From: Raillietiella orientalis
Taxonomy: Eukaryota
DNA length: 64,000 nucleotides
Direction: 5' to 3'
Assembly (NCBI GenBank): GCA_036172245.1
Contig: JAYWIR010000026.1
Coordinates: forward strand, 1 to 64,000
Position numbers and translations under genes: made by a program
Part shown: positions 26,468-57,950 of the stretch, piece by piece
Layout: every line of letters starts with the position of its first letter
How positions within the stretch are numbered: position 1 is the stretch's first letter
The notes under the pieces: model-generated
What the model was told of the DNA's origin: nothing
The model's database searches: none
What the model saw: the letters and a program-made list of their open reading frames with translations, nothing else

Positions 26468-28553
26468 GACGTCACCGCAGTGAGTGGACGTGTTTTTGTG
26501 GAGCTCCCGAAAACCGTTTTTTTCGCGGGTGTTTGTGGTGTTTTTTGAGCGGTTGTTCCTGAGCAAAAATGCCCGAGGACGACGCCAACACGGCCTAGGG
26601 GGGCGAACGAGCGTCGTCCCCCCAACCCATGGATGTGGGCGCCATCTTACCCACAGATTCGTCCCCCGCCCTGGCGAGGGCTTGGAGCGCGGTGGTAGCG
26701 GCGCCTGCGCCACCCCCCGCAGAGGAATAGCGGGCGTATATGGCCGACGGATACAACCCGGCCCTACTGTATAAGGTAGGTGGGCTTTATTCTCCCGCGA
26801 TGTTGAGAACGTTTGCCGCGGAATTCAAAAAACTGAAAGTGCCGGAAGAAGAAGTTCTCGGCCTTTCCGTTCGCAGTGGCGGTCAGCTAGTCGAGCTGAA
26901 CTGCAGAACTGCAGGAATGACTCAGCAGTTGCTGAGATGCCCGGTGACCGTGAACGGGAGAAGGATCTTCCCGTTTACTGCCGACAAATCGATCGTCATC
27001 CACCTGACCGGGGTGACGATGCGAATGGCGAAAAATGCCGTTAGGCAGGAACTGGAAAAGTACGGGACCGTCCACGGTCTGTGGGCTAAGCCGAACACCC
27101 TGGGCTATACTAAGGCGTTCAGTGGCTATGCCGCCGCGCGTGTGACAGTCCGCGAGGGTAGTGGTTTACCCCACCGACTTCAGGTCGATGAAGAATACAT
27201 TGATCTGTGGTACATAGGAAAACCCAAATTTTGCGGAAACTGCGAGACTACAGGGCACCTTAAACGGAGGTGCCCCAACATCGTGTGTCTACGCTGCGGT
27301 AACAAGGGCCACGTAAGAAAGGTGTGCCCTCTTCGTTTTGCTTCCACTCCTGTTGGCAACAAGAGAACAGAGTCGCCACAGGAACCGGACAAACAGGATC
27401 CCCAATCGAGTGAAACCTCCCAGACAGGCGAGATATCGACGCCAGTGGAACAAAAACCGGAGGAGAGCGAAACTGTCGCCGAAAACAGTTGGCAGTTGGT
27501 GAAAAAGGAGAGCAAAGGGAAAGGTTGGCAGTTGTAGTGGCGAGCGAAAGCTCAGTTGCTGCGGTTCCGAACGATAGCGCGCCAGTTGCCGCTATCGAAT
27601 CGGTTGTTACGTCACCCGACTCGCCAACAGGCGGCAAAATCCGTGATGACGTGGAACGCATCTCTGATGCAAACTTCGCGCAAGCCGCGGAAGAGTTGGC
27701 TGCCTTCCTGAGGCAGCCCGTCAAGGCCGAGAAGAAAGCCTTTCGACGCCCGGCTACGGCAAAAGACCCGGAAACCTCCGAGACTGACGCCGAAAGCGGG
27801 AACTCACCTTCCGTTGGCTTGCCGACAAGAAAACATAAAAATACAACAGGAGCTCGTAGGCGTGCTGTCACCTCTCAGGAAGAGGTCGAAATGGCATCTG
27901 ACAGCGAGGAAGAGTCCATGTGCGTTGCACAATGCGACTCCGTGCCTGAGAGCATCCATTACGAACTGTTAACACAGTCCACGGCCAACGGAGTGAGCGA
28001 TGCTCCTGAACACTCCAACGACATGGACCCGGAACACCCGTCTTCTGAACAGGAGGCGGTTTCTACCACCCCACCATAACAACACCATTGCGTGGACTCG
28101 CCTCCTCTAGCGGCTTGCGAATAACCTGTTGGAACGTCAACGGGTTGAGCAGCGACGGGAAGAGGCGAGACGTAGCCGCCATTCTGCGAGACTTCGACCT
28201 GGCCCTACTGCAAGAGACTCACGTGCTCACAACAGAAGCAGGCCAGGATTTCGAAAGAATCACAGGAGGGCGACTACTGTGGAGGAACGGAACAGACTAC
28301 TGCGCAGTGGCCTTTCTGCTGAAGCCGGCCGTCGAAAACTCTCTGCGTAGCGTTCGCTTCGACGGGGACGGTCGAGTTGGACAGCTTGTTCCCAAGTGGT
28401 CTGATTCGATCGACCTCGTTGTGACGAACAGATACGCGCCAGTGAGCAACCACGGGGCCGAGGAACGCACTGCGTTTTTCGAATCCCTGCGGTGAGACTG
28501 GCTGGCTGAAGCAGGCGTACGGAAAGCGCACCTCATCGCGGGAGATTTCAATC
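26468..28553 (+). mobile_element. Family D LINE 5' half: 5' UTR, ORF1 (26569-28079, disrupted) and APE up to GDFN
   Basis: GGACGTGTTTTT at 26486; GYNPALLYKVG, CGNCETTGHLKRRC, CLRCGNKGHVRKVC, FAQAAEELAAFL; APE CWNVNGL..LQETH..YAP..HLIAGDFN. Confidence 0.9.
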
Positions 28554-31500
28554 GAGTGCGGACGTGTTTTTCTTCGCTCTCGTCTCCGTGCTTTCATCCT
28601 CTTCATCTTGGCGTCGTACATTTTGACGACGATGTCGACCCAACTCAAAGCTACTGAAGTTGGAGGAACAGCATCCGGATCTGCAATCGCGGAACCGACG
28701 GCCGCCTCCACTTCGTCTTTCTCGCCAATGGAGAGGAGTTTTGCTGACGTTGCTGCCACAGCAGCCGTCAAACGAAAACCACTCGACGAGTCGGAGTTGC
28801 GGGAATACGTAGCCCAAGGTTATAGACCTGCTCTCCGATATAAGGTGAGTGGCTTTCTTTCTGCGCGCGACGGAAATCAGTTCAACGATGAACTGACCCG
28901 TGTTGGCGCGCGGGAGGACGACCTTCTCGCCATTATGCCCGTAAAAGACATGGGCTATTTCAAGGTGCGTAGCAAAGACGCTGCACTTGTGCAACGCTTG
29001 CTGCGCACCCCGTTGTCGATCCGTGGCCAGAAGGTCTTCCCGGCCGCCATGGACGACTCATTTGTGGCGGAGATTTTCGACATCGAGACGGAAATCTCCG
29101 ATATTGATATTCGGAACGCGTTGGCAAAATTCCCCACGGTCCATGAGCTGTGGAGGGTGCGTAGCAACCTCAAGGACTTCCCGTCCATACACAGCGGAGT
29201 CGCTGGAGTCCGGCTTACCATGCCGGACCGCTGTCTGCTGCCCACCAAACTACAGGTGAAAGACACGGTCGTTCACCTGTGGTTCGTGGGAAAAGTAAAA
29301 ACGTGCGAGCAATGCGGGAAGGAGGGGCATTGTTTGGATAAATGCCCCTCTGGAAAATGCCGTTATTGCAAACTATCCGGGAACCAATTGAAAACTTGCC
29401 CGGATCTTTTGCGAAAAAAGGCAGCCGCGGAGCTTCATCGTAAGAAACAAAGCGCGGATAAAAAGAAAAACTCTGCGAAAGACCTGGAGACCCCACGGTA
29501 GAAATTCCGAAAAAACGCGAGGCGGAATGTCGCCCCAAAGCAGCAGGAAACCTCGCACGCGAAGCCCTGCGCTCCCCCTCTCGCGGCAAGGAAGCCGCAA
29601 AAGAAAGGGTGCGGGGAATCCGGGGCAATGGTAAGTCTCCCTAGGCGCAATAGCTGTCCTCACCAAGCACGCCCGGCTCTTTCGGAGTTCGAGCAACCGG
29701 CGGGGACGTCAATGGACAACGGCGGTAAGAACACTTCCAGTACCGTCAGATCCATTCCTTCACCTCCTGCAGTGGCTGAGAAGCTTAAATCCGGTAAGAA
29801 GGGTTGTGCCGTGTCGACTTCGAAAGTCGGCAAAAAAAAATCCGTGTCGCGATCCAACACCGCGAAAGCGAAGAAAAATCTCACGCCGTCGCAGTCGGAG
29901 AGCAAGCTCTCGACTGGCGCGGATGCCATGCCAACGAAGGGATTAAAAGCCCTTCCGAAAGCAGCGTCCATGTCGAGCGTGTCGAAGCCATCCAAAGTGC
30001 TCCCGTCCAAAGACAAGGATGGCATCAAAGATGGCAATGGAGCACAATCTCCATTTACGGCGCCACGCGAAGTGAGGAACCGTAATGAAGTAAAGAAGAC
30101 TTCAGCAAAGGTCCCTCGTGCAACTGCGCGTGAGCACGCTGAAAACGCGCGCGCCGGGAAAGTAGCCGTCACCAAAAGCGATGCTCAGGAGACGGAAAAA
30201 GACAACAGGACAGCAGTCAATCCAGCAGAACCTGTCACTACTTCGCGGAAGGCCGAAACCCGATCGAACATGCGCCGGTCGGACTCCAAAATGGATGCCG
30301 TTCCGATCACCGAGACGAGGACAACTCGTTCAAAAGCGTGTGCGCGCCGATCAAAAGTAGGCAGCCAGGCAACGCTCGCCGCGAAGCAACGGTAAGTCTC
30401 CACGAAACCCGACGGGATTAAGCCTGGCGTGGAGGCATTACATGCATGCAGAACGACGGAGGACGGTGGCGACCGTCCCCTCCAGTCAGTCGTGCTGCTC
30501 GCCGTCTGCTCGCCGGATAAAGCGAGCAAAAAGCCGCCACCTTCCCAGCAGTAATGCGGGGAATCGCATCTTCTCGTCGTCTGTCCGTAACTTCTTGGAA
30601 CGTGAACGGACTACAAAACGACAAGAAGAGGCGATTAGTAGCCAACGCCCTGCGCCCCTTCGACCTCGCGCTCCTGCAGGAGATTCACGTAATCTCCGAC
30701 GAGCAGGCAGCCGAAATCGAGGAGCGCGCAGGCGGAACGCTACATTGGCGGTGCGGCGGCGCACACACGTGCTGCGTCTTGTTCCTCGTAAGAGGAAAAA
30801 TGGCGGAAGCGGTGCGTAGTGTTCGTTTCGATGACGACGGGCGGATAGGCCAGCTTGTCATCAAGTGGTCCGAGTCCATCGATCTCGTCGTTACGAACGT
30901 CTACGCGCCGAGTGGCTCTCGCTACCTCGAAGAAAGAGTAGCTTTCTTTGGTGAGGTGCAGAGCCACTGGCTCAACAACTCCGGCTTTTAACTGGTGCAC
31001 CTCGTCGCTGGGGACTTTAACGTCCGCCTGCTCTCCGACGATTGGAGCAGCCCGAGGGAGCGCGCGCTGCCCATCGAGATGTGCGCGTCAGTGCACGCCG
31101 CCAAATTGATGGTCAGCGAACCTGGAATGGAAAGATCGCTCGATTACGTTTTCCTCGATGAAAACCTGCATTCGCGTGTGGGTAGGAGAGGAAGATTGTT
31201 GACTAGGCTTTCTGACCACCACAGGTTGGGGTTTTTGATCCTTCCGCCAGGCAGGGGGCCTCCGTTGCAAAACTGGAGGATGCAGGCGGATTGGCTTAGC
31301 CAACCGGAGGCTGCGGAGCGTCTTCGTGGATACCTCCGAGGCTTTGCCATTCAAGAACTTGCGGACTGGGACGATCTCAAAAGATCTGTCCGCGAGTTCT
31401 GCTGTCAATTCCCCTTGCAACGGCTTCCACGCGGTTTCGGAGAGGGCGTGGCCAACAGTAGAGACTTTCTGCAGGACCGCACGTTTTCGAGACGCGCGGA

Positions 31501-32531
31501 TGTCGGGCGTCTCGCAGAGTACAAGGCGAGGGCCGAGCGCCAGGTCTGGCAGTCCGGAGCAGCATGCCTGTTGGACGACAAGTGCCAGGAATGTTCGGCC
31601 CCAGCCGAAGTACGCCGCATTGTGAGACGCTACTACTTCTCGCTGTACGCGGAATCCTCGACGGAGGATATTCTCTCTGAGATACTCCTGTCTCAGGATG
31701 CTCGTGTTGTCGGCGAGGAGGAACGCGAACGCCTCAACGAGCCCTTCACGGCGGATGAATTTTCGTCCGCCGTCGCTGGGCTGAAGTGACGAAAGGCGCC
31801 ATGCGAGGATGGGCTCCCTGGAGAGTTTTATCAGTGCTTTGAAGTGGAGCTCATTCCCTTGATGCTGAGACTCGCGACGCTGATGAGTGAATCCGGGAAT
31901 GTCCCGGATTCCTTCCGCTCAGCGAAGGTGCGTCTCCTGCCGAAAGGCGGAGACTTGCGTCAACTTAACTACTGGCGTCCGATCACCTCTGTGTACTCGG
32001 ACGTCAAGTTGTTTTCCAAACTGTGGGTCGCGCGGTTAGGAAGTATCGCGGAATCTGTGGTGAGCCCGGAACAAACCTACGCGGTTCCGGGACGATCCAT
32101 GGAGGCGAACATCCTTTTCTCGCGTACATGGATGCATTTGCAGGAAGTTGTTGCGCAGGAAAGCCAGGCTGCTGCGAAAGTCACTGCCGCAGGCAAGGAG
32201 AACAGGCGCCGATGGCAGGAGGGAACGCCAGGCGCCTTGGCGTTAGCGGTCGATTTCCACAAGGCGTTCGACTGCGTAACCGAGTAGCTGCTTTTGGAGC
32301 TTATGGAACGCCTTGGGTTCCCGGCGCAACTCCTGCTGTACTTGCGCGCGTGCTGCCGCCACATGCTAACATGCATTACTTCCAGCGGCTGCCGCGTGTA
32401 TGGTATTCCCGTTCGTAGGGGCATCCAACAGGGCGACAGCTTAAGCCCGTTGCTCTTCTGCATCTTCTTAGAGTTGGTGCTAAGAGCATACAGGCTGACG
32501 CTGTCTCACTTGCCAAGCTCCTGCTCGGGAA
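28554..32531 (+). mobile_element. Family B LINE copy B1, left part (5' UTR, ORF1 28632-30554, ORF2 to just before YADD)
   Basis: Near-identical by eye to the reverse complement of 39145-43114. TAATG junction at 30552-30556; APE and RT motifs; several premature stops. Confidence 0.92.
28560..28571 (+). promoter_or_regulatory. Putative internal promoter motif GGACGTGTTTTT (also at 521, ~6401, 26486, ~43097, 45533, 53817, 56112)
   Basis: Present within ~25 nt of every intact 5' end, in otherwise unalignable UTRs of families A, B and D. Function is inferred. Confidence 0.5.
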
Positions 32532-33871
32532 GTCGCGAGCCCACCGTGAGCAGCGACGACCGGGACTTCAAGAAGGCGGCGGAAGAGTTGGCAGCCATGC
32601 TTTAGCAGCCTCACAAGGCCCAGAAGAAGGCCTTGAGGCGTCCGGCTGAGGCGAAAGGACCGGAGACTTCCGAGTCCGAAGCTGGCAAGGCTCCGGCTGT
32701 CGCTTCCCCGAAGCGCAAAGCCGGCCGCAAGGTAGGCAACCCGCGGCGCTCCGCACCTCCACCGGCGGAGGAGGAAATGCGGTCGGACCACGACGACGGG
32801 GAGGCGATGTCCGCGAGGTCTCGCGACTCCTCGCCGGAGACGTCCCTGGCCAAGCAGGATCCTCCAACCACCACCAGAACCACCGACGGACCGCCTCCTT
32901 GAGAGGAAAAGCCCGTCGCAATGGATACACAACTCCCGCCTGCTGAACAGCAGGCGGAGGACGGTAAGCAAACACCATAAAGCCACCAACGCGAGGACTC
33001 TTCTCCTGCCGGCGACTGCGCGTAATCTGTTGGAACGTCAACGGGTTGCGCGACGACGGCAAGAGGAGAGAAGTGGCCGCCAGCCTGCGGGACTTCGACC
33101 TGGCGCTTCTGCAGGAGACGCACGTTCTCCACGCAGGGGAGGCTCAGGAAATCGAACGGATCGCAGGCGGGCGGCTCGTATACCAAAACGGGAGAGACCA
33201 CACCCGCGGTGTGGCTTTCATGCTGAAGCCAGCCGTCGTTAATGCGCTGCGCGACGTGCACTTCGACGGGGAAGGTCTAATCGGGCAGCTTGTTGCCAAG
33301 TGGTCCGACGCGATCGACCTCGTCGTGACCAATGTGTACGCGCCCGGCACGAGCCACAGGCGCGGGGAACGCACTGCGTTCTTCGAAGGCCTGCGGCGAG
33401 ATTGGCTGGCCGAAGCAGACATGCGAAAGGCGCACCTCATTGCCGGGGACTTTAACGTCCGCCTGCTGGCAGGTGCGCCCGACATTCGCGCACAGCTGGT
33501 CAACGAGATGTGCGCTGCCATGCACGCGCGCAACTTGTTGGCCGGTGACGCCGGGACGGAGACGAGGATCGACCACATGTTCCTCGACAACCACCTGTGT
33601 TCGCGGGTGGGAAATCGAGGGGCAGTGCCATCCGAACTTTCCGACCATCCTCGGCTCGTGCTAGAAAGACACCCGCGCGGTAGAAGTCCACCCTCTACAG
33701 CGTGGCGTTTGCCAGGGGACTGGTTGCGCCTCGCAGGAGCAGCGCAACATCTTCGCTCGTTCCTGCAAGGCTTCCATCTGCAGTCGCTCGCGGACTGGGA
33801 CGACTTGAAGAGCTCAGTCCGCGAGTTCTGCGACCAGTTTCCCCTGAACCGTCTCCCTCCAGGTTTCGGCG
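32532..33871 (+). mobile_element. Family C LINE (5'-truncated), left part: ORF1 C-terminus and complete APE
   Basis: FKKAAEELAAML; ORF1 stop at 32978-32980; CWNVNGL, LQETH, NVYAP, AGDFN, IDHMFLD, SDH, ending LPPGFG. Confidence 0.9.
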
Positions 33872-34076
33872 TTGTCACCCGGGTACGCCCCGGGCGTTTA
33901 TTAATAAACTTTACATGCGTGGTACAAGGCCTTACCACGGCCGTAAACACAGGACCTGTCGGGACACCGGGACGCAGCCCGGCGTGGCACTCCCCGACAG
34001 CGAAGGGGGATGGGGATAAGACAAAAGGTAAAATAAAAAGAAACAAACAAAAAGAAGTTGGAGGGCAGAGAAGGGA

Positions 34077-37000
34077 TCACTGTTCGCTGTGGAGAGGGCC
34101 CATCCGTCGAACGAAGCCCTCGAGGTCAGTCCTCATATTCCCCAGTTGGGGCCATCCGGCAGCTCTTCGCAAGAAGCGTTGGGCATATGGGATGACATCC
34201 CTCGCGTGTTGACCCACTCCTTCCTTGTTGGTGTCGCTCCACGCCGCCACGATGCCTCGGACGCAGCACAAGGCTGCAAGGGCTGCGGCTGGCTGCAGGG
34301 CGTCCTTCACGAAGAGGGGCCGAAGAACGTCTCTAGGGGAACTGCCCGTTGGGAGACCGAGGATCGTCCCAAACCGTTCCCAAAGGGGACGAAGGGCAGC
34401 ACAGTCCACAATAAGGTGGGAGAGCGATTCCCGCTCTCCGCACCTGACACACGCAGGATCCACAACTCCTCTTGTCCAGTGAGAGCGGCGTACGTTGAAG
34501 GGTAAACTCCAATGCAACAACAGCAACGCCGACTCTTTCCACTTAAGAGGCAGGATCCTGGATTCCTGAAGAAGCGACGGCCACTTCAGCACATCCATAG
34601 GGATGGCCAGCAGCTCGCTCCATCTTCTTAGTCCTCGCGGCTGGACGCTCGGGGTCGTGGCGTCTGCCAGTTCTCCTGTTGTCCAGCCGCTGATCAACTT
34701 TTCGCGTCCCTCGATGCAGCAGGAGACTTGCCACCTTGGCGTACGGCTGCTGTGAAGTGCCCTCTTCAGGAAGGGCAGCGCCGTAGCTAGACAGGTCGTC
34801 TCTGCCCACATGCATCTTGCTGGAATCTCCAGGAGATTCCGCAGCGTGCAGCGGGCGTAGGGGCTGCATCGGAGACGATTCCACGTCTCGTGGCTTGTCT
34901 TGTTAACCACTGCCCACGTTCCAATATTTTCCTCCAGCCAGGCGGGGGAGTTGGCGGGGCAGCAAACCATCCAGCTGTTCTCCTTGGCCAATGTTGCCAT
35001 GCGCCCGAGCAGTAGGCCGCATCTTCGCATCTTCCGGCCACGGCTCAGAAGAAAAGACGCGAGTCCATCGCACCGGGACACACGGTTGGCCAGGAGGCGG
35101 GCCGGAGTGCACCAAGGGGTGTTCCACATCTTTGCTGCGATGGCGAGGGTTCGCCACCGCAGCTGCTTTTCCACGCGCTCCAGCGTCAGCAGGCCAAGAC
35201 CGCCGCCCCGACGCGGAGCGCACAAGTCCTTCAGTGGGACTCGGGGCCTCCCCTTGCCCCAAAGGGCGATACGGAGGAGGTCCCTCGTCCTTTTCTTGGA
35301 TTCCACGGTGGGAGCGCAAACAAAAAGCAAGGGGCGGAGGATGGGGGCCGCGAAGGCGTTCCAAACCGCGGCCCGTTCCGGCAAGTGAAACTTGCCTTCC
35401 AGGAACGGGCCGATCGCCGTCTGCACTTTTTGGAGGCAGCTGGACCACGCTTCCGCAGGGGAGTAGTCCCCCAACGGCACACCAAGGTACTTGAAGCACC
35501 TTGCCGTGGGGATCCCCAGACGGACCCAGTCCTGCTGCCCTGCCCACGCCGCACCTATTGGCACAACCGACGACTTCGCCCTGTTAACCTGCAGTCCGGT
35601 CCCGCGGCTGAGCAGATCGAAGAAGTCTCCGACCGCCTTCGCCGGGATGGACATTGGCAACAAGAGCAGAAGATCATCGGCGTACGCTGCTACGGCGGGC
35701 GTGCCGGGGCACGAGCTCGGCAAGGGGGCCAAAGTCACCCTGTACGCTCTCAGCAATAACTCAAAGTAGGTGCTAAAGAGCAGGGGGCTGAGGCTATCGC
35801 CCTGCCTTATGCCCCGCCGCACCGGCACGCCATACACCTTCTGTCCACTGAAACAGACGGTAATCATCGCATTCCGCCAGCAAGAGCGCAGGTAGGAAAT
35901 CAGGGAGGGTGGGAAGCCCATGCGACCCAGGAGCTCCAAGAGGAGTTCCTGGTCTACACAGTCAAACGCCTTGTGGAGATCGACTGCGAGCGCTAGGGCC
36001 CCCTTCCCTGCCCGGGGGTCCCTTCCCAGCCCGGCTGGCGGCCCCAATGTGGGGTTGCCGACTTTCCCTATCCCTTTCTTCTCTCTTCTCTGCTGGTGCA
36101 CCCATGTGCTTGCGAAGAAGAGGTTGGCATCCATACTTCGACCGGGAACAGCATAAGTCTGCTCCGGGCTAATTACGGATTCTGCCACCTGCCCCAGACG
36201 CGAAGCCCATAGCCCTGCTATCAACTTGGCGTCCGTATTCACGATTGTGATCGGACGCCAGTTCTTTAAATTCCTGAAGTCTCCCCCTTTCGGAAGGAGC
36301 CTCACTCTGGCTGACCGAAACGAGGCGGGAACATCGCCTTCATCTCGGATCAGCCTGATCAACTTAAGCAGCAGGGGTGCCAGCTCTTCCGCGAAGCTCT
36401 GAAAGAACTCCGCAGGCAAGCCGTCTTCCCCTGGAGCTTCACGCCTCTTGAGCCTTTTGATACCGGCGAGAATTTCGCCGGTGGTAAAAGGCTCGTCGAG
36501 GATTTCCATCTCCTCCTCCCCTATTGCCGGGGTGCCATCCGGAAGCAAGCGTCGAGAGGCGTTTCGATCCGGGGGCTCCCTGGCGTAAAGGGAGGAATAA
36601 AAACTCCGCTCGAGATGCCGTACCGACGCCAGGGACGAACATTCGCGGCCCTGGCCGTCCAGCAAGCTGGCAGACCCGGATTGCCAGGCTCGGCGTTCGG
36701 CCCCGGCGCGGTACTCGGCCAGGCAACGGATATTAGAGGTTCTCTCGTACCTACGAGCCTGTAAATAGGCCCAATGGTTGCGAGCACCCTCGCCGAATCC
36801 GGGGGGCAGGCGATCCAGGGGGAACTGCTCACAGAACTCGCGGACCGATTCCTTAAAAAGGTCCCAGTCCTGGAGATTCCGGAGCGTGACGCCTCTAAGG
36901 TATTCGCGAAGGTGTTCCTTCGCACCTGAGAGTCGCGTCCAGTCATCCGGCAGACGCCAATCCCTGGATGGCGGTCCTTTGTCGCGAGGCCGCATCTCGA

Positions 37001-45456: not shown

Positions 45457-45558
45457 CGGACACCGACGATGTGCACGCACAAATCACTTAAGAAGAAAAA
45501 ACACTCGCTTTGCCACGCAGGCGGAGCGCAGGAAAAGCACGTCCTCTCTCCACAGCGG

Positions 45559-48544
45559 GGATTCGGCGAAGGGCTGAGGAACGACCGGGCATACCACCAC
45601 GCCCGTCTTTACTCTAGGACTCCCGACGTTCGACGCCTGGCGGAGTATAAAGCTGGGGCTGAGCGACAGACCTGGCAATCCGGGTCGGCCAGCTTGCTGG
45701 ACGCCCAAGGCCAAGAATGCTCAGCTCCGGCAAGAATAAACCGCATCCTGCGGGACTATTACTCCTCCTTGTACGCGCGTAGAACAACGGAGCGCGCCGT
45801 GGCGCAGCGCTTGCTGCCGCAAGGCGCCCCCGCGCTGCAGGAGGAGCAGGCACATCAACTCGAGGAGCCTTTCTCGATGTCGGAGATCGTCTCCGCCATC
45901 GGAAAGCTCCGAAAGAGGAAAGCACCAGGGGAAGACGGTCTGCCCGCGGAGTTCTACTAAGGCTTCGTGGCGGAGCTGGCCCCCCTGGTGCATCGGCTAT
46001 GCATGCTGATCCGAGAACAAGGGGACGTCCCCAAATCGTTCCGGTCAGCTAGAGTACGTCTTCTGCCGAAAGGAGGAGACAATCGCAACGTAGGCAACTA
46101 ACGTCCCATCACAGTAGTGAATGCGGATGCGAAGTTGCTTGCCAAGCTTTGGGCTGAGCGACTGGGACGGGTGGCGGAATCCGTGGTGAGTCCGTTGCAG
46201 ACATACGCTGTTCCAAGACGAAGCATGGAGGCCAACCTGTTCCTCGCCAGTACATGGTGCCAGTTGCAACAAGGCGAAGACCAGGGAGGTCAAGAGAATC
46301 CTGGATTCTCCTCTGACCAGGGAGGGGACGCCCTTCATGGAAGAGCCGCGCCCGGTGCCCTTGCGGTCGCAGTCGATCTGCGTAAAGCGTTCGATTGCGT
46401 CGACCAGGAACTGCTTCTGGAGCTCCTAGAACGCGTGCGATTCCCGGCCGTCTTCCGGGCTTACCTGCGCTCCTGCTGGCGCTTCGCTCTAATAAACATC
46501 TCTTTTAGCGGCCGGCACGTGTACGGCGTGCCGGTTCGGCGTGGCATAAGGCAGGGTGACAGTCTGAGCCCCTTGCTCTTCAGCATCTACTTCGAGCTGG
46601 TGCTGAGGGCATACAGGGAGACTCTGGCAACCCTGCCAAGCTCGTGTCCCGGCACGCCTGCCGTGTCGGCCTACGCCGACGACCTTCTGCTCCTGCTCCC
46701 CGGGTCCACCCCGGCGTCGGCGCTCGACGATTTCTTTGAGTTGCTGCGCCGCGGGACGGGCCTCGAGGTGAACAGAGAGGCATCTTCCATCGTTCCAACA
46801 TCACCACAACTTTTCAACCATACGGCGTGGGCCGGACGGCCGGACTGGATCCGCTTGGGGATCCCCACGGGCAGGTGCTTCAAGTACCTTGGCGTTCCGT
46901 TGGGGGACTTCTGCGTTGCAGAAACCTGGTCCGACCGTCTCCAAAAGGTGGAGTTGGCGATCGGCCCGTTCCGGAACGGCAAGTTTTACTTGCAGGAGCG
47001 GGCCGCGGTGTGGAACGCGTTCGCGGCCCCCCTCCTTCGCCCCTTACTTTTTGTTTGCCCCGCCCCTCCCATCATACAGAGACGGACGAAAGCCCTCTTG
47101 AGGACTGCCGTTTGGGGCACAGCGAGGTCGCGAGTCCGATTGAAAGACTTGTGCGCTCCACGCAGAAATGGTGGCTTGGGCCTCCTTACGTTGGAGCGCA
47201 TCCAACTACAGACAACACTTCGGAAGTTAGCCCTTGCGGCTAGCTTATGGATGACGCCATTGTGCGATCCGGCACGGCTCCTCGCCAGAAGAGCGACCGG
47301 CTGCGAAGGATTGTCCTCGATCCTCGTGGCCTACCAGCGCAGACTCTCCAACTGTGGCCATGATTTGCACTAGATGGTCGTCCTGATGAGGGAGAATACC
47401 TGGATCTCCTGCATCCCCTCGAACTGCACTGCCTGGCTTCAGGAGTCAGCTTCCGCGTGGGCTAAGATCAACGGCACGAGCGAGGCGGAATACAACTGCC
47501 TACGACGAGGACCGTACGCTCGACAGCCGCTGCAGGAGATTATCAACACGCCCCGGAAGTTTCTGTGGGCTTCTTTCAGCCCCCTTGCCCCCGTTCTGTC
47601 CTCCCTGAAAAACACTAGGAGCAGCAACGAGCTGGCATCGTGGGAAATGTCCTGCCTCATCTGAGGCAGGAAAAAACCTTCAAAGGCGTGGACGACTCGA
47701 GAGCTCACGGACGCTGCCACCCCGAGCGTCCCGCCTCACGGACTTGCGCGCTGGGGAGAGCTGCTCGCAATACATCCGGAGGAGGTGAAGTGGCCCCCAG
47801 CGTGTTGGGATTGCGGCACACTTCCGTTGAAGTGGCAGGAGACGGCGTTGCTATTTCTGCACTGGGGACTGTTAAGCAGAGCACGCCTGTCTCACTGGAC
47901 ACTGGGAAATGTGGATGCCCGCTGTGTCGAGTGCGGAGAAAGGGAAACCTTCCCGCATCTCACCCTCAAGTGTGTCGCCCTGGATGGACTCTGGAGTCGA
48001 ATCGCCCCACTCCTCCATCTTCCAGTAGGCTACCCTAAGGAAATTTACCGTCGCCTCTTTCTGCGTGACGGCCTGCGCACCGCTGCGTCTCTAGCAGTCC
48101 TCTGCTGCGTGCGCAGCATTGTGCAAAGGTGGCACGCCAGAAGAAGAAGCCCAAGATGCAAAGACGCCAACCACTGGACGACGATCTCTTTAGAGACGGC
48201 GACAAGGTGGCGTCTAGATTTCACAATAAAAACTAAACTTGACTGCATCCTCAACAGGATGCGGAGGACCGACCCAGGCACCCAGTGATCCCTTCCCTTC
48301 CCCCCCTCTCCCCATGCAACTGTTTGCTCCCTCGTTATCTATCTTTTTGTTTATTTTTGTGCTAGTTTTCCCTTCCCATGCGCCTCGGGAATGGACCTAA
48401 CCGGTCTATGCACCGGCAACCGACACGTCCAGCAAGGTGGTAGAACCCAGTGTTTTCCCACAGAAAAAATCTTTTTAAAGACTTTATTATCTAATTTTTG
48501 TAGAAAATTAGAATAATCAATGCCCCGGCATATCCAAGTGGCAA
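45559..48544 (+). mobile_element. Family C LINE, right part (linker, RT, zinc finger, 3' UTR)
   Basis: Resumes GFGEGLRNDRAY; DLRKAFD, GIRQGDSLSP, AYADD, CVECGERETFPHLTLKC; ends AATAATCAATGCCCCGGCATATCCAAGTGGCAAA. Confidence 0.9.
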
Positions 48545-50453
48545 ACGCTGATGACCTGCTTCTTCTGCTCCCCATGTCCACCCCGGCGTCCAGTGTCGAG
48601 GAATTCTTCGACCTGATTCGTCGGGGAGCAAGCGTAAGCGTGAACAGAGAGAAGAGCGTGGTCGCTACTGTGGGTACGTCGTGGGAGGGGCAGTCCGACT
48701 GGATCCGCCTGGGGATCCCCACGAAAGCGAACTTTAAGTACCTTGGCGTTTCGTTGGGCGCTCTCGGCGCAGTTGAAGCGTGGTCCGACTGCCTTCAGAA
48801 AGCGACGCTGGCCGTCAGCCCGTTCATCAATGGCAAGTTCACCTTGCAGGAACGGGCGACTATTTGGAACACCTTTGTGGCCCCCCTCCTCCGTCCTCTC
48901 TTTTTTGCTTTGAACCTCCCCTATGCGGCAAAACAGCGGGCTTAACTCCTGCTTGGAAACGCGCTTAGGGGTCCGGCGAGATCCAGGATCCGCCTTAAAG
49001 ATTTGTTAGCTCTTCGTCGAAATGCTGGTTTGGGTATCCTGACAATAGAGCGAATCGAACTGCAGGTGCAGTTCCGACTGCTGGCACTGTGTGCCTAGCT
49101 ATGGACATCCCCCTGTGTGTGCCAGCCCGCATTCTCCTGCGGAGATGCGCCGCAAGCGGAGGATTTCTCTCGCTTTTGCCTGGCACTAAATACACGAAGC
49201 GGGGTTTCGGGTTTCCATTGCGGCAGTTGACCGCACTTCTGGAAGCTCACTCGTGGATCTCCTGCCACCCAATGAACTTTGAAGCTTGGCGGCAGGAGTC
49301 TGTTGAATCCTGGGCGGCGTTCCAAGGAATACGCCCTGAAGATCTTCGCCCCCTGCGCCAATTTTTTCCTCGATCCTTGGAAGAAGTACTGCAGGACGAG
49401 GTGAAGTTTTCTACCCTGGCTGCCACGCCTGTTGCCACAGCCCTGTATTCCCTCAGAGCAAGAAACGACAGTTACCAACCGGCGAGGTAAGAGGTTTCCT
49501 GCACGATAGCGGGAAAAGCAAACTCCTTGACGCCTGGAAAACGAGTGAGTTAGCGGACGCCGCCACTCCTCGTGTTACTGCAAAGGGACTCCTCCGGTGG
49601 GCAGAAGAACTTGCTGTCACCCCCGAAGAACTTGTAGTCCCTCCACAGTGTGTTGAAGTTCGCTGCTCTTCCTTGCTTGGAAACAAGCCATGCTGCTTTT
49701 CGTTCACTGGGGTTTTCAGTGCAACGAGCGTTGCCATCGTGACTCCGGGGGACTTGCATCTTCCAACTGCGTTCCGTGCGGATCGACGGAGTCGATCCCG
49801 CACCTACTTCGGGAATGCAATGTCCTACAAGGACCGTCGCGTAAACTGGCAACAGCGCTAATGCATTCCGTGGACACCGCAAGAGACTTGCTGCGACGAT
49901 TCTTCACGCCGAGCGGGCTGTCCTTAAGCGCAAGGATTGCAACCATCGGTTGCATACGCGCGATAGTTTTCGTCCGCCAGGCGTTGGTAAACAACGGACA
50001 GCACCAAGAGGTAATCAGCAAAGCATCCTTCTACATGGGAGCATCCGCTAGATGGCCTCATTTCACAGAGAAGGCAAAAAGGAATCTCGCCGCAATACAC
50101 CGCCGGTTTACACACGCTCAGCAGCGGCCAAACCGGTGATCATTGCCCTACCCTCCATAAACTAATTTTGTATTTTCGTTTTACACCCGCGTCCCCATAG
50201 GCTCCGGAATATTTCAGGTGCTCCCCGATTAAATCCCCGCGAGTACGGAGCCTAACCAAAGACCCGTTACCCTTCCCTCCAGTTTTTGATTTTTGTTTGT
50301 TATCCCCTTATTCCTCCCACGTTGCAAGCGGTTTGTTTACCAGGCCTGCGTGCCGGTAATATCTCTATGTTTCCTGTCATTCTGTTGGTTGAGGACATTT
50401 TGCCTGACCAGTTTATTATTATTAATAAATGCCCCGGCGTGACCGGGTGATAA
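48545..50453 (+). mobile_element. Family B copy B1, right part
   Basis: Resumes at ACGCTGATGAC (ADDLLLLLPMSTPASSVE); matches the reverse complement of 37214-39123 including the 3' UTR and hairpin. Confidence 0.92.
50424..50453 (+). terminator. Element 3' signal: AATAAA followed by a CCCGG-loop-CCGGG hairpin and TGATAA (variants at all 8 element 3' ends)
   Basis: Seen at 8683-8713, 13778-13807, 25003-25033, 33872-33902, 37214-37243, 48512-48544, 53768-53798 and partially at 61635-61652. Confidence 0.65.
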
Positions 50454-53400
50454 ATTTCAATCCATGCCTGCTAACAGGTGAGCCGGAAACACAAGTGAAC
50501 GCGATGAACGAGTTGTGCCCCGCCATGCGTGCGCGCAACTTGTTCGCGGGTGAGAGGGGAATGTTCCGCAGCATCGATTACGTCTTCCTCGACGCTGACC
50601 TGTGTTCACGGGTCGGCAAACGAGGGAGGGTTGGGTCAACGTTGTCGGACCATTTCCGGTTAATTTTCGAGATGCGTCCTCGCGACAAAGGACCGCCATT
50701 CAGGGACTGGCGTCCACCCGGGGACTGGACGCGACTCTGAGGTGCGAAGGAACACCTTCGCGAATACCTGGGAGGCGTCACGCTCCGGAATCTCCAAGAC
50801 TGGGACCTTTTTAAGGAATCGGTCCAGGAGTTCTGCGAGCAGTTCCCCCTTGACCGCCTATTCTCCGGATTCGGCGAGGATCCTCGCAACCATCGGGCCT
50901 ATTTACAGGCCCGTAGGTACGAGCGAACCCCTAATGTCCGTCGCTTGGCCGAGTATCGCGCCGGGGCCGAACGCCAAGCCTGGCAATCCAAGTCGGCCAG
51001 CAAGCTGGACGACCAGGGCCGGGAATGTTCGTCCCCGGCGTCGGTATGGCATCTCGTGCGGAGTTAGTATTCTTTCCTTTACGCCAAAGCGCCTCCGGAT
51101 GAAGATATCTCTCAACTCTCGCTTCCGGTTGGTGCCGCGGCAATAGCGGAATAGGAGTCGTTAAGCCTTGATGAGCCTTTTACCACCGGCGAAATTCTCG
51201 CCGGTATCAAAAGGCTCAAGAGGCGTAAAGCTCCAGGGGAAGACGGCTTGCCCGCGGAGTTCTATCAAAGCTTCGCGGAAGAGCTGGCACCCCTGCTGCT
51301 TCAGCTGACAAGGCTGATTTGAGACCAAGGCGATGTTCGCGCCTCGTTTCGGTCAGCCAGAGTAAAGCTCCTTCCGAAAGGGGGAGACCTTAGGAATTTG
51401 AACAGCTGGCGTCCGATCACGATTGTGAATACGGACGCCAAGTTGGTTGCCGGGATATGGGCTTCGCGTCTGGGTTAGGTGGCAGAATCCATAATTAGCC
51501 CGGAGCAGTCATATGCTGTTCCCGGGCGAAGTATGGATGCCAACCTCTTCTTCGCGAGCACATGGATACACGCGCAGAGGTGTCAAAAGGAAGGGAAAGG
51601 AAAAATCGGCTACCCCACTTTGGGGCCGCCAGCAGGGCAGGGAATGGACTCCCGGGCGGGGAAGGGGGCCTTAGCGCTCGCAGTCGATCTCCATAAGGCG
51701 TTCGACTGTGTTGACCAGGAGCTTTTGTTGGAGCTCCTGGGTCGCATGGGCTTCCCACCCTCCTTGAACAACTACCTGCGCTCCTGCTGGCGCCATGCGA
51801 TGATTTCCGTCTCTTTCAGCAGTCAGAAGGTGCATGGCGTGCCGGTGCGGCGGGGCATCAGGCAGGGAGATAGCCTGAGTCCCCTGCTCTTCAGCACCTA
51901 CTTTGAGTTGGTTCTGAGAGCCTACAGGGTGACTTTGGCCTCCTTGCCTAGCTCGTGTCCCGGCACGCCCGCAGTAGCAGCCTATGCCAACGACCTTCTG
52001 CTCCTGTTACCTATGTCCACCCCGGCGAAGGCGGTCGGAGACTTCTTCGATCTGCTCATCCGTGGGACCTTACTGCAGGTCAACAGGGCGAAATCGTCGG
52101 TGGGGCCAGTAGGTGCGGCGTGGGCAGGGCAGCAGGACTGGGTCCGTCTGGGGATCCCCACGGCGAGGTGCCTCAAGTACGTTGGTGTGCCATTGGGTGA
52201 CTACTCCCCTGCGGAAGCGTATTCCAGCTGTCTTGAAAAAGTTGAGACGGCGATCGGCCCGTTCCTGGAAGGCAAGTTTCACTTGCAGGAACGAGACGCC
52301 GTTTGGAACGCCTTCGCGGCCCCCATCCTCGGCTTCTTGCTTTTTGTTTGCGCCGCCCCCAGAGAATGCAAAAATAGGACAAAGGACCTCCTCCTCATAG
52401 CCCTTTGGGGCAAGGGGAGGCCCCGAGTCCCTCTGCAGGACTTGAGTTCTCCGCGTCGGGACGGCGGCCTTGGCCTCCTGACGCTGGAGCGCGTGGAAAT
52501 CCAGCTGCGGTGGCGAACCCTCGCCATCGCAGCGAAGATGTGGAACACCCCTTGGTGGGTTCCGGCCCGCCTCCTTGCCAATCGTGTGTCCCGATGCGAA
52601 GGACTCGAGTCGTTTCTTCTGTGTCCTGGCCGGAAGATCCGAAGATGCAGCCTTATGCTCGGACGCATAGCAACCCTGGCGAAGACGAACGGTTGGATGG
52701 TTTGTGGCCCCGTCAACTCCTCCGCCTGGTTAGAGCAGTCTGCTGGCACATGGGCTAAGCAGAACCGGAGAAGTGAAAACAATATGAACTGCCTGCAAAT
52801 CGGCCCATGCGCCAACCGCATCCTGCGGGAAATACTGGAATATCCCCGAAGTCGCAGGTAAGCGTTGACGACTCCCCTTGCTACGGCGATGCCCTACAGC
52901 CTGAGGGCGCTTCAGGATCGCCAGAAGCCGAGGTGGCAAGTCACCTACCAAATCGCAGGCAGGGAGAAGATTTTAAGCAGCTGGACCACAGGAGAACTGG
53001 CGGACGCCACGACCCCGAGCGTCCGACCGCATGGATTGATGAGATGGGGCGAGCTGCTCGCAATCCCTACGGATGTGCTGAAGTGGCCCCCGGTGCTGAA
53101 GGAATCCAGGATCCTGCCCTTTAAGTGGCAAGAGTCGGCGTTGCTACTGCTGCACTGGGGTTTACCCTGCAACGCACGCCGCTTCCACTAAACAAGGGGA
53201 GCTGTGGATCCTTAGTGTGTCAGGTGCGGAGAGCGGGAATCGCTCTCCCACCTTATTGTGGACTGTGCTGCCATCCGACCCCTCTGGGAACGGTTCGAGG
53301 CGACCCTCGGGCTCCCTACGGGCAGCACCCCCAGAGACGTTCTTCGGCCCCTCTTCGTGAAGGACGCACTGCAGCCAGCCGCAGCCATCGCAGCCTTGTG

Positions 53401-53798
53401 CTGTGTCCGTGGCATCGTGGCGGCATGGAGCGACGCCAATAACGAAGGAGTGGGTCCACACGCGAGGGATGTCATCCCATACTCCCAACGCTTCATGCGG
53501 AGAGCTGCCGGATGGACCCAACTGGGTAAATATACGGACGGACCTCGAGGGCTTCCTTCGACGGATGGGCCCTCCTCACAGCGTTTAGTGATCCCTTCCC
53601 TGCCTTCCAACTTCTTTTTGTCAGTTTATTTTTTATTTTTTTGTTGTTTTATTCCCATACCCCTTCGCTGCTGAGGAACGCTACGCTGGGCTGCGTTTTG
53701 GTGTCCTGGCAGGTCGAGTGTATATGGCCGTGAGCAAGGCCTTGTACCGCGGATGTAGAGTTTTAACAATAAACGCCCCGGGCGTACCCGGGTGTAAA
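50454..53798 (+). mobile_element. A-type LINE 3' half starting at the GDF|N target site (right flank of B1)
   Basis: FN..LLTGEPETQVNAMNEL, IDYVFLD, SDH, RT motifs (YAND variant), finger; ends AATAAACGCCCCGGGCGTACCCGGGTGTAAA. Confidence 0.9.
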
Positions 53799-56105
53799 CC
53801 TCCTAGGCCAGATGAAGGACGTGTTTTTCTTTCCTTCTCAAAGAGTAGTAGGAAAGCGTTTTTCTTGTGTGTTGTGCTTTGTGTACATCGTCGGTGTCCA
53901 ATGGCTATGACGCCCGAGGACATCGCGATGGAGGTAGGCGTGGAGGAGGCTAGTTCGCCTCTACACCCTACTTGAGCAGGGGCAGCCGCCCCGGAATCAT
54001 CGCCGGCCACGCCGTGGACATGGAGCGCCATGGTGGCCGCGCACAGAGCGGAAGCCATGGCGGAGATGGACGCATACAAGGCCTCCGGGTACAAGTTATC
54101 GCTTTTCTACCAGGTAGGGAACTTGTTTGACAGCAGAAATGCACGCGCATTTAGCAAAGCGCTGCAGGAGGCGAATATATTAGAAAGGGATCTTAAAGGC
54201 CTCTCCGTCCTCAGCGGCGGGAAGCGGGTCGAGGTGGTGTGTACAGACGTCACCTTGGCTCACCGCCTGATTCATGCTCCGCTAAACGTGGACGGCCACA
54301 AGATCCTGCCTATGTCAATGGACCGCTCCGTCGTGGTCCACGTGACCGGCATTAGCAGCCGCATGACTCGATCTGCGGTCGGAGAAGAACTACGAAAGTT
54401 CGGGGAGGTGCACGCACTGTGGCCCAAACCCACCATTTTTGACGGCTACGGTAGCCTTTTTGATGGTCAGGCTGCAGCGCGGTCCACCGACAAAGAGAAT
54501 TGTTGACTGCCCCACAAACTGAAGGTCACGCAAGAAAGCGTCGACCTTTGGTACGCGTGGAAACCATGATACTGCGGATACTGTGATGCCGTGGTACACC
54601 TCCGTAAGAGGTGTCCTAGCATCCAGTGCCACCTGTGCGGGGAGAAGGGCCACGTTAGGCGTGTGTGCCCCAAGCGCCCCTCTCCAGTTCCCCCTGCCGC
54701 CAAAAAAGCGCAGGGGAAACGTGCCTTGAAGGTCGCAAGACCTAATGCGCAAAGTGTCCAGCAGAAGCTGCCAGCACCTCAACTTCCGGCGCAAAACCCG
54801 AAGGATAAACCTTCCGAAGTAATGGAAGGGGAAGAGGTCTGGCAACTTGTTGCTGCCAGAAAAGCCAAGAAAGGCCCATCCGCGGAGCAGAAAGAGCGCT
54901 AGCCGGCAGGTAAGCCGGAAAATCCCGGTCCGCGCTCGAAAACTCTGCGCGAGTGTACGGTGACACTGGAACGAATCGTGTTCCCGTGGCTGCAAACCGG
55001 GGCGACGAGCCTTCCCTCGCCGTTTCCGCCGCGCTCGAGATTCGCGACGGCGAACCCTCTGTTTACACAGAGAGTGAGCCACGCGACATAGCGGCGGGCG
55101 AAGCCGCGGACGCCGCGTTCGCGCAGGCGGCGGAGGAGCTCGCGGTCACGCTGGCCGAGCGTGAGAACCCCTCGCGCAAGGCCGTGAAAAGGCCGGCTCC
55201 GCGGAAGAAGGCCCCCATAGGTGAGTTAGACCTGGGGGCCGGAAGTACATCCTCCCCCTCGGAGGCACCACTCCAGGAAGTCGGAACGCAAGTCTTAGAA
55301 GCCGAGGAGGCGCCTCCCCTCCACCAGCGAGGAGGAGAAGACGGAAGCCGTCGCCAACGTGGGAATTCCCACGCTCGGAAGCCGTCGATCCGGCCACCCC
55401 CATGGAGGAGGGTGAACAGGAAGTGAAGTCCCCCCTGCAGGCGCCGACCCTGAACAGCCCGCCTCCATGGAGGAGGACGAACAGGTAGGCGCGACCCCAC
55501 CTGTGGGTGACCCGCTCGACGCTCCGTTACCTATGGAGGAGAGGGACCAGGTGCCTTCAGCAACCGACCCTCCTCCTCCACATAGCGTCCCGCCCCAGCA
55601 GGTGGCGGACGCCACATTGCCACCTTCTCAGGAGTGACACCTGGGCTCGCCAGTCACCGTCGGATTCGCGCCGCCTGTTGGAATGTCAACGGGCTGCGCG
55701 CCGACGGTAACAGGCGAGATACAGCCGACACCCTGCGGGAGTTCGACCTGGCCCTGTTGCAGGAGATCCATGCGATCAACGCGGCGGACGTCCAGGAGAT
55801 CGAGACGATCGCAGGGGGTCGGCTGTACTGGCAATGCGGCATCCGCTACACCTGCGGGGTCGCTTTCTTCGTGAAGCCGGCCATCGACGCTGCCGTGAAG
55901 GGCGTGCGCTCTGATGAGGACGGTCGGGTCGGTCAGCTGATTCTCGGCTGGTCCGACTCGATCGATCTGATCGTCACGAATGTGTACGCCCCAAACGGTC
56001 AAAATGGATACAGCCACCGTAGCAGGTTGCTTGAATCTCTAAAGCGCGACTGGCTTGCGAACACGAACGTGCGGAAGGCTCACCTGATAGCGGGAGATTT
56101 CGATC
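53799..56105 (+). mobile_element. Family A copy A2, 5' half (ORF1 53901-55637 disrupted; APE to GDF)
   Basis: GGACGTGTTTTT at 53817; MAMTPEDIAMEVGV; CGYCDAVVHLRKRC, CHLCGEKGHVRRVC; CWNVNGL..LQEIH..NVYAP..HLIAGDF. Confidence 0.9.
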
Positions 56106-57950
56106 GAGTGCGGACGTGTTTTTCTTCGCTCTCGTCTCCGTGCTTTCATCCGCTTCATCTTCGCGTCGTACATTTTGACGACGATGTCGATCCAACTTGA
56201 AGCTACTGAAGTTGGAGGAACAGCATCCGGATCTGCAATCGCGGAACTGACGGCCGCCTCCACTTCGTCTTTCTCGCCAATGGAGAGATTTGCTGACGTT
56301 CCTGCCACAGCAGCCGTCAAAGGGAAACCACTCGACGAGTCGGAGTTGCGGGCATACGTAGCCCAAGGCTATAGACCTGCTCTCCGATATAAGGTGAGTG
56401 GCTTTCTTTCTGCTTGCGACGGAAATCAGTTCAACGATGAACTGACCCGTGTTGGCGTGCGGGAGGATGACCTTCTCGCCATTATGCCCGTAAAAGACAT
56501 GGGCTATTTCAAGGTGCGTTGCAAAGACGCTGCACTTGTGCAACGCTTGCTGCGCACCCCGTTGTCGATCCGTGGCCAGAAGGAATTCCCGGCCGCCATG
56601 GACGACTCATTTGTGGCGGAGATTTTCGACATCGAGTCGGAAATCTCCGATATTGATATTCGGAACGCGTTGGCGAAATTCGCCACGGTCCATGCGCTGT
56701 GGAGGATGCGTAGCAACCCCAAGGACTTCCCGTCCATACACAGCGGAGTCGCTGGAGTCCGGCTTACCATGCCGGACCGCCGTCTGCTGCCCACCAAGCT
56801 ACAGGTGAAAGACACGGTCGTTCACCTGTGGTTCGTGGGCAAAGTAAGAACGTGCGAGCAACGCGGGAAGGAGGGGCATTGTTTGGATAAATGTTCCTCT
56901 GGAAAATGCCGTTATTGCAAACTATCCGGGCACCAATTAAAAAATTGCCCGGATCTTTTGCGAAAAAAGGCAGCCGCGGAGCTCCATTTTAAAAAACAAA
57001 GCGCGGATAAAAAGAAAAAATTTGTGAAAAACCTGGAGACCCCACGTCAGAAATTCCGAAAAATCCCGAGGCGGAATGTCGCTCCAAAGCAGCAGCAAAC
57101 CTCGCACGCGAAGCTTTGCGCGCCCCCTCTCGCAGCAGGGGAGCCGCAAAAGAAAGGGTGCGGGGAATCCGGGGCAATGGTCAGTCCCCCTAGGCGCAAT
57201 AGCTGTCCTTCCCAAGCACGCCCGGCTCTTTCGGAGTTCGAGCAACCGGCGGGGACGTCAATGGACAACGGCGGTAAGGACACTTCCTGTACCGTCAGAT
57301 CCATCCCTTCACCTCCTGCAGTGGCTGAGAAGCCCAAATCGGGTAAGAAAGGTTGTGCCGTTTCGACTTCGAAAGTCAGCAAAAAAAAATCCGCGTCGCG
57401 ATCCAACACCGCGAAAGCGGAGAAAAATCCCACGCAGTCGCAATCGGAGAACAAGCTCTCGACTGGCGCGGATGCCATGCCAACGAAGGGATTAAAAGCC
57501 CTTCCGAAGGCAGCGTCCATGACGAGCGTGTCGAAGCCATCCAAAGTGCTCCCGTCCAAAGACGCGGATGGCTTCAACGATGGCAATGGAGCACAATCTC
57601 CATTTACGGCGCCACGAGAATTGAGGAACCGTAATGAAGTAAAGAAGACTCCAGCAAAGGTCCCTCGTGCAACTGCGCGTGAGCACGCTGAAAACGCGCG
57701 CGCCGGGAAAGCAGCCGTCACCAAAAGCGATGCTCTGGTGACGGAAAACGAAAACAGGACAGCTGTTAATCCAGCAGAACCTGTCACTGCTTCGCGGAAG
57801 GCCGAAACCCGATCGAACATGCGCCGGTCGGACTCCGAAATGGATGCCGTTCCGATCACCGAGACGAGAACAACTCGCTCGAAAGCGTGTGCGCGCCGAT
57901 CAAAAGTAGGCAGCCAGGCAACTGTAGCCGCGAAGCCACGCGAAGTCTCC
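56106..57950 (+). mobile_element. Family B copy B3: 5' UTR and almost complete ORF1 (ATG at 56184)
   Basis: Same 5' start as B1 and B2; frame is open to ..AKPREVS, where it is cut. Confidence 0.9.

Follow-up and report, generated by a model that had tools for sequence, protein, structure and literature searches.

The DNA considered here is a stretch of 64,000 nucleotides from Raillietiella orientalis (contig JAYWIR010000026.1 of assembly GCA_036172245.1, positions 1 to 64,000), referred to below as the window. Much of it is made up of long interspersed nuclear elements (LINEs), copies of which are nested in one another and fill the part from about 26.4 kb to the window end as well as the first 14 kb. 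These LINE parts have a GC content of 55-62%. A Pfam scan of 147 stop-to-stop frames, each of at least 130 amino acids, gave matches on both strands to the PF03372 endonuclease, the PF00078 reverse transcriptase (RT), the CCHC knuckle and zf-RVT. The element in question is a LINE family, designated B, with three copies in the window (B-I, B2 and B3). All three begin at the same nucleotide, directly after the codons for the G-D-F-N motif in the apurinic/apyrimidinic endonuclease (APE) gene of another LINE. Site-specific insertion of B at these host codons seems to be the best reading of the locus, and we consider it probable.

The nest opens with the 5' part of a host LINE, H1, on the plus strand (26470-28553, the 5' boundary being approximate). 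It contains a 5' motif at 26486 that is shared with other families, an open reading frame 1 (ORF1; 26731-27534, including a CCHC knuckle) and the N-terminal part of an APE, and it ends in the G-D-F-N codons. Then follows the 5' segment of B-I (28554-32531, plus strand), which corresponds to B positions 1-3973 and is 94.7% identical to B2 by BLAST. B-I is interrupted by a 5'-truncated element, LINE X, in the sense orientation, whose first segment (32532-33871, plus strand) holds the end of an ORF1 and a whole APE. X in turn is interrupted by an element of family A on the minus strand, A1. The 3' part of A1 (33872-37213) encodes the C-terminal part of its APE and its RT, with a 3' tail ...CCCGGGTGACAA, while its 5' part (43115-45557) comprises the 5' untranslated region, ORF1 with a CCHC knuckle (43585-45483) and the N-terminal part of the APE. 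Between the two lies the full-length B2 (37214-43114, minus strand; 5,901 bp). The second segment of X (45558-48544, plus strand) contains the rest of ORF2, with RT (46102-47370) and a zinc-binding region, and has the 3' end ...CCAAGTGGCAA. It is succeeded by the 3' segment of B-I (48545-50453, plus strand; B positions 3992-5901, 92.0% to B2 by BLAST) and by the 3' part of H1 (50454-53797, plus strand), with the C-terminal part of the APE, the RT and a 3' tail ...CCCGGGTGTAA. Next comes the 5' part of a second A-family host, A2 (53798-56105, plus strand), of which the N-terminal APE part ends in GGAGATTTCGATC (56093-56105). It is followed by B3 (56106-57955, plus strand), which extends over B positions 1-1849, is then broken, and is 95.5% identical to B2. 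A relative of B, designated B', occupies 57956-61634 (plus strand) and shows 78% identity to B in the ORF1 region and 87% in ORF2.

The BLAST comparison with B2 thus identifies the segments at 28554-32531 and 48545-50453 as the halves of one copy. In a preliminary description of this DNA, four B copies had been counted and an independent host 'A3' had been proposed. This has to be corrected: the 3' piece at 48545-50453 belongs to B-I, leaving three copies, and what were then taken for a host 'D' and a second 3' host are both parts of H1, one at either end. The halves of X are likewise contiguous in ORF2, the first ending in ...FPLNRLPPGFG and the second going on with GFGEGLRND.... The antisense insertion of A1 in the ORF2 of X amounts to 11.7 kb, B2 included, and is bordered by a 10-bp duplication (GGTTTCGGCG at 33862-33871 and GGATTCGGCG at 45558-45567). 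The nest is therefore five deep, H1 > B-I > X > A1 > B2, with an order that agrees on both sides of every element. Since B positions 3973 and 3992 flank X, since A1, with its 10-bp duplication, splits X and since A1 carries B2, the insertions must have occurred in the sequence H1, B-I, X, A1 and B2. From this order it follows that B reached the same site at least at two well-separated times. A1 was still young at the time B2 split it, because the remainder of its ORF2 on the 3' side is still one open frame of 1,053 amino acids (34080-37238).

Family B is a LINE of 5,901 bp with ORF1, APE, RT and a putative zinc-binding tail, all best seen in B2. A leader of 78 nucleotides precedes the ORF1 of B2, which runs from an ATG at 43036 to 41756 and encodes 427 amino acids with a CCHC knuckle. 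This knuckle, CEQCGKEGHCLDKC, was spotted by eye in the translation; Pfam gave no match to B ORF1 at E <= 0.001. The APE (39807-41150) matches PF03372 with 49.3 bits (cut-off 24.5) and the RT (38630-39886) matches PF00078 with 78.9 bits (cut-off 29.6), while the putative zinc-binding region (37530-38189) has a weak match to PF13966, of 21 bits and E 5e-4, below the cut-off of 27.5. In the Protein Data Bank (PDB) the B APE matches chains of the human L1 endonuclease (best E 3.7e-6), and none of the nine matches at E <= 0.01 is an R1 or TRAS endonuclease chain. The nearest relative of the RT is one unnamed protein with 59% identity; the nearest named ones are plant L1-like proteins with 22-31% identity, and no named Tx1 reference came up. 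The 3' region of B2 is A/T-rich and leads into a GC hairpin tail that ends in ...CCGGGTGATAA, without poly(A). Long terminal repeats (LTRs) are absent, 9-bp target duplications are present and ORF1 carries a knuckle. Judged by its sequence, B belongs to the L1 superfamily, as an autonomous non-LTR retrotransposon of the APE type. It would come from a poorly sampled organism, because the APE matches the L1 endonuclease and relatives of the RT are few and distant.

Both ends of B have counterparts in the other families. The motif GGACGTGTTTTTC is found near the 5' ends of families A, B and D, with seven matches in the window (520, 26486, 28560, 43096, 45532, 53817 and 56112) against 1.97 expected, a number reached in none of 100 shuffles. 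That the motif is shared suggests that B has an internal promoter of its own and would not depend on transcription of the host. The 3' tails of A and B are alike as well, of the form AATAAA(C/T)GCCCCGG..CCGGGTGA(T/C)AA. The 5' motif and the 3' tail may be promoter and RT recognition signals that these families have in common, which would allow cross-mobilisation. A fusion of B ORF1 to the frame of the host was considered and rejected, the ATG at B position 79 being out of frame with the host APE. Processing of B by a ribozyme of the R2 type was rejected too: in an Rfam scan of 601 bases around the 5' end of B2 the only match was to mir-1175 (E 0.49), and no self-cleaving ribozyme was found at the B 5' end.

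The 5' ends of B lie at 28554 (plus), 43114 (minus) and 56106 (plus), and all of them begin with GAGTGCG(G/A)ACGTG. They are preceded by GCGGGAGATTTCAATC, or, at 56090-56105, by the version GCGGGAGATTTCGATC (...TTCGATC at 56105), so that B starts in all three cases directly after GGAGATTTC(A/G)ATC. This flank encodes A-G-D-F-N in the N-terminal half of the host APE, and the orientation of B is that of the host sense strand in 3/3 copies. The 3' ends, ...GACCGGGTGATAA, are visible at 37214 (minus) and 50453 (plus). Beyond them stand ATGTCAATC and ATTTCAATC, respectively, followed in frame by the C-terminal half of the host APE. B-I is consequently bordered by ATTTCAATC at 28545-28553 and again at 50454-50462, a 9/9 match, and B2 by ATTTCAATC upstream (43115-43123) and ATGTCAATC downstream (37205-37213), an 8/9 match. 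Both copies with two visible ends (2/2) thus have a 9-bp target duplication. These results bear out what the preliminary description had noticed, namely that the B 5' ends follow the A-G-D-F-N codons at an identical nucleotide and that the 3' ends are followed by a duplicated flank and the rest of an APE.

When B and one 9-mer are taken out of A1, the host aligns with the uninterrupted APE of X at 33445. An empty site is also present in public sequencing data. The runs consulted were one with a share of words of 0.54 (run X1) and two with next to none (X2 with 0 contigs and X3 with 1). Among the matches listed for run X1, a contig links 37204 directly to 43115 and omits 5,910 bases, exactly B and one 9-mer. 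Because of this empty-site join and the realignment of the host, B is a true insertion with a 9-bp target duplication. In the window, B shows the pattern of a target-specific LINE: the same nucleotide (3/3), one orientation (3/3) and a constant duplication (2/2).

The distances between the copies tell whether these are separate events. In global alignments, pairs of B copies are 94.5-95.6% identical over the first 1.85 kb (81-101 mismatches in about 1,848 sites; Kimura two-parameter (K2P) distance 0.045-0.057), 94.8% over positions 1850-3973 and 92.2% over the last 1.9 kb. The upstream flank of H1 (the former 'D') is 65.7% identical to that of A1 and 65.9% to that of A2, with 146-147 mismatches in 428 sites and a K2P of 0.47 in each case, and past about 500 bp it can no longer be aligned with A. 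Between the upstream hosts A1 and A2, the identity is 86.0% for the last 430 bp and 84.0% for 1 kb (159 of 995 sites differ). The flanks have a K2P of 0.16-0.47 against 0.045-0.057, so that their divergence exceeds that of the B copies by a factor of 3 to 10. In bins of 100 bp, the step in identity falls exactly at the 5' junction. Downstream of it, B has 85-98%, or 90-98% when the last partial bin is left aside; in the nearest 500 bp upstream, H1 and A share 53-72% and A1 and A2 80-90%, with lower values further out. At the 3' junction the step is modest, from 92.2% in B to 85.5% over 3.3 kb of the 3' parts of H1 and A1, or 90.2% over the first 430 bp. It had been argued earlier that divergence is far greater among the hosts than among the B copies, and for the 5' flanks this is borne out (65.7-86.0% against 94.5-95.6%). 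The competing case that the preliminary description had itself put forward, one composite amplified by duplication, is contradicted by these pairwise distances, as it predicts an equal divergence of B and host. The sequence divergence supports the view that the three B insertions were independent.

A further characteristic of the target is revealed by the choice of codons. The window has seven G-D-F-N sites in a LINE APE context. Three of them read GGAGATTTC(A/G)AT (GGA GAT TTC (A/G)AT) and all carry B, while the other four read GGGGACTT(T/C)AAC (GGG GAC TT(T/C) AAC) and all are empty. The empty sites are those of X (33445), of a B-like element F (2538) and of B's own APE in two copies (31010 and 40661). 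The unoccupied site of X at 33445-33457 is GGGGACTTTAACG, and the B-I APE has GGGGACTTTAAC at 31010. Sites that are degenerate and empty are seen in B' itself and in an element G. The 13-mer GGAGATTTCAATC, with 0 or 1 mismatch, is present at three places in the 64 kb, all of them B junctions. At up to 3 mismatches there are 34 matches against 17.55 expected, and none of 100 shuffles reached 34. It can be inferred from these nucleotide patterns that B recognises nucleotides and not the motif as such, and that it would spare its own GGGGACTT(T/C)AACG site. The preliminary description had regarded the motif as a constrained safe harbour. The recurrence of the target is upheld by the present data, but the constraint on the amino acids does not lock the target in place, since related APE genes escape the 13-mer by means of synonymous codons.

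A regional preference alone does not explain the one-base recurrence of B, because the other families in the nest have inserted at varied sites: A1 lies antisense in the ORF2 of X, A2 behind the tail of H1, F in an A-like APE and B' in B3. LINEs of all kinds have thus collected in this region, with B alone recurring at one base. The possibility that the A-family hosts are themselves site-specific was examined and dismissed, as the upstream flanks of A1, A2 and A4 are unrelated.

On this basis a mechanism can be proposed. B would integrate by target-primed reverse transcription at 5'-GGAG^ATTTCAATC^-3', a sequence that is predicted to serve as target in endonuclease genes of both the A-type and the D-type, where it spans the G-D-F-N codons plus the base that opens the following codon. 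The B endonuclease would make its nick in the bottom strand of GGAG|ATTTC, between G and A, and synthesis of the first strand would be primed there. The top strand would be cut 9 bp downstream, after ...CAATC. The hairpin tail, similar in A and B, is a likely recognition element for the RT. Each insertion of B would split the ORF2 of the host and thereby kill that host copy. A homing-like scenario, in which B would use these codons as a safe harbour and inactivate its competitors, is plausible as a hypothesis.

Several observations weigh against site-specific insertion. There are only three B events, all of them within 28 kb of one nest, and the four empty sites go back to no more than three lineages (X, F and, twice, B), hence few independent points. 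There is no sign of present B activity, because ORF2 is broken in every copy and lies in at least three frames in B2. B', a relative of 78-87% identity, sits in B3 at B position 1849, a site that is unlike the 13-mer and does not encode G-D-F-N; the sequence of B' sets in at B position 72, where there is a short microhomology. At least two of the X1 contigs have a B-type tail and then an unrelated flank (loose end 37212). Finally, H1 is chimeric. Over the last 430 bp its upstream part is 75.9% identical to X and 65.7% to A1, while over the first 430 bp its downstream part is 90.2% identical to A1 and 64.0% to X. H1 is X-like up to ...CACCTCATCGCG and A-like from the 13-mer on, so that the switch occurs about 5-15 bp before the B 5' end, and because it does so there, recombination may have shaped this junction at least. 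H1 may be a recombinant LINE that was formed at the most conserved stretch; it is also conceivable that the junction was made or remodelled by recombination between B-bearing hosts, or else B may spread in part by break repair.

It could be imagined that B inserts at many sites, among which G-D-F-N is merely favoured, and that this site is over-represented here as the window is dense in LINE endonuclease genes. The different site of B' and the unrelated flanks in the X1 contigs are in line with such a hot spot, as is a census of B that covers only this window. However, all three B copies are at an identical nucleotide and every 13-mer with 0 or 1 mismatch is occupied, and given that the A-family tail resembles that of B, the loose ends in run X1 need not be B at all; we regard a mere hot spot as unlikely. 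Another idea is that there were few true insertions and that B then spread, in a homing-like manner, by gene conversion, double-strand-break repair or unequal crossing-over. A tract of co-conversion or a crossover would give the pattern of H1, which flips from X-like to A-like no more than about 15 bp away from the point where B begins and is A-like throughout its 3' part, and the junction and the 9-mer would have been copied together with B. Against this stand the flanks of A1 and A2, which keep to 84-86% identity as far as the junction, against 95.6% for B, with no visible co-converted flank; moreover, the host of B2 was inserted later than B-I, and each complete copy has its own pair of 9-mers (9/9 and 8/9). 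A spread by recombination is, in our opinion, somewhat less likely still than a hot spot. The most sceptical explanation denies any specificity and supposes that segmental duplication, or retrotransposition of a composite RNA, produced several copies of one composite, in which conversion later kept B alike, or that the assembly is at fault. The modest difference at the 3' junction (B 92.2%, host 85.5-90.2%) and the location of all copies in one 28-kb nest would fit, but not the host flanks, which are 3 to 10 times more diverged with a step exactly at the junction, nor the D flank, which cannot be aligned with A past about 500 bp, nor the nesting order, which is consistent on both sides of every element. 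This explanation is very improbable. Site-specific insertion of B at the G-D-F-N codons thus remains the reading that we prefer.

Two further insertions in the window concern catalytic motifs. X is inserted in B-I at the Y-A-D-D codons of the RT (32531/32532 and 48544/48545), with a loss of 18 bases of B, and its 3' end ...GTGGCAA adjoins ACGCTGATGAC. Among the Y-A-D-D sites in an RT context in the window, this is the one interrupted out of six. A minus-strand LINE, Y, has an end ...CCGGGTGAAAA that abuts the codons for K-A-F-D (RT motif A) of B' at 61634/61635; here one out of seven K-A-F-D sites is interrupted. Taken together, these two cases, each of them a single event, hint that codons of catalytic motifs may be struck more often than by chance. 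One could go further and envisage a guild of LINE families, each homing to nucleotides in the catalytic motifs of its rivals, with B at G-D-F-N in three events and X at Y-A-D-D and Y at K-A-F-D in one event each, the motif of the attacker being protected by synonymous recoding, but that such a guild exists seems decidedly doubtful.

Copies of B outside the window were sought in several ways. An exact 24-mer from the 5' region of B had 0 matches in collections of metagenome, genome and viral contigs. A search for related loci by RT alignment yielded 72 loci, all distant (identity of the best segment 21-44%) and none usable. A protein word search with the peptide across the A2/B3 junction produced two candidates, none of which scored. 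When the 204-amino-acid frame across this junction was compared with 1.84 billion representatives, 129 matches were obtained, the best with 52% identity over residues 20-123, and none over the B-encoded tail. No RNA runs containing words of the window were listed. Two contigs of run X1, again among the matches listed, lead from an A-type host across the final 30 bases of B's tail (37214-37243) and then into unrelated A-rich sequence. These contigs, ending at 37243, could reflect a short non-autonomous element that uses the tail of B at the same site.

Several APE-type LINEs are target-specific: the R1 clade in 28S ribosomal DNA, TRAS and SART in telomeric repeats, and elements of the Tx1 clade, such as Tx1L in the Tx1D DNA transposon, Keno in U2 and Mutsu in 5S. 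B is reminiscent of these in having an APE endonuclease, a fixed nucleotide, a fixed orientation and a precise 5' end, and in its short constant duplication and multicopy target. What sets B apart from those systems is that its target is neither an RNA gene nor a simple repeat or DNA transposon but a protein-coding catalytic motif of other autonomous LINEs, and that B itself encodes the motif with different codons. Conserved codons of essential genes are occupied by homing endonuclease genes and by mobile group I and group II introns. With these B has in common a conserved coding target at a catalytic site and an own allele that lacks the target. In contrast to both, B has target duplications, RT and APE, so that reverse transcription rather than break repair is its most likely way of moving, and it does not splice out, which means the loss of the host copy.

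There are also LINEs that nest in themselves (Zepp, Cnl1), but, to our knowledge, without a defined mechanism. Zepp of green algae goes into its pre-existing copies (PMC8226300, PMC3446292), and Zepp and ZeppL form nested clusters at putative centromeres, with one GC-rich cluster per chromosome (PMC3446292). The window resembles this, in arrangement only, by its L1-type LINEs nested five deep in a GC-rich cluster. In the accessible portions of these papers, Zepp is described as self-inserting, which gives arrays of 3' ends, and no mention is made of a precise nucleotide as target within an endonuclease motif of other families, whereas B is found in other families and would have such a target. 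Cnl1 of Cryptococcus favours insertion into its own copies (PMC9942834). Like Cnl1, B is a LINE with LINE sequence as the preferred target and in the same orientation, although Cnl1 targets itself, in subtelomeres, while B lies in other families and its own motif is empty. In the full-text literature, a scope that leaves out most subscription papers, the Repbase reports and the original Zepp papers, no LINE was found that targets the endonuclease codons of other LINEs.

If the preferred reading of site-specific insertion is true, B would be a hyperparasite, a LINE targeting the active-site codons of autonomous LINEs. Its harbour would be present in many copies and do the cell no harm, and one competitor would be disabled with each jump. 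The nearly identical natural pair of GGAGATTTCAATC, which is hit, and GGGGACTTTAACG, which is spared, would lend itself to studies on how an AP-type endonuclease reads DNA. Site-specific insertion could also help to explain the build-up of clusters that consist of LINEs only, for example at the putative centromeres of algae.

In the remainder of the window, the region 14000-25000 has a GC content of 44-48%, below that of the LINE parts, and is without long ORFs, Pfam hits or likeness to the LINE families; no recognisable genes were found in it. The 64-kb window as a whole contains no tRNA genes, no satellite or telomeric arrays and no Rfam families at gathering score, and a look-up in the Atlas yielded nothing beyond generic endonuclease clusters. 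With respect to the other LINEs, the 3' tail of H1 (...CCCGGGTGTAA) directly abuts the 5' end of A2 (ACCTCCTAGGCCAG...) at 53797/53798, head-to-tail and with no spacer. Near the window start, an A-type 5' end at 551 (minus strand) comes after an X-like ORF1 end. F (1612-4268, minus strand), which is 72-80% identical to B, starts in an A-like APE, some 170 bp ahead of its G-D-F-N codons. Its start at 4268/4269 follows ...FGDDGRNGQ, and its own, empty site reads GGGGACTTTAACG.

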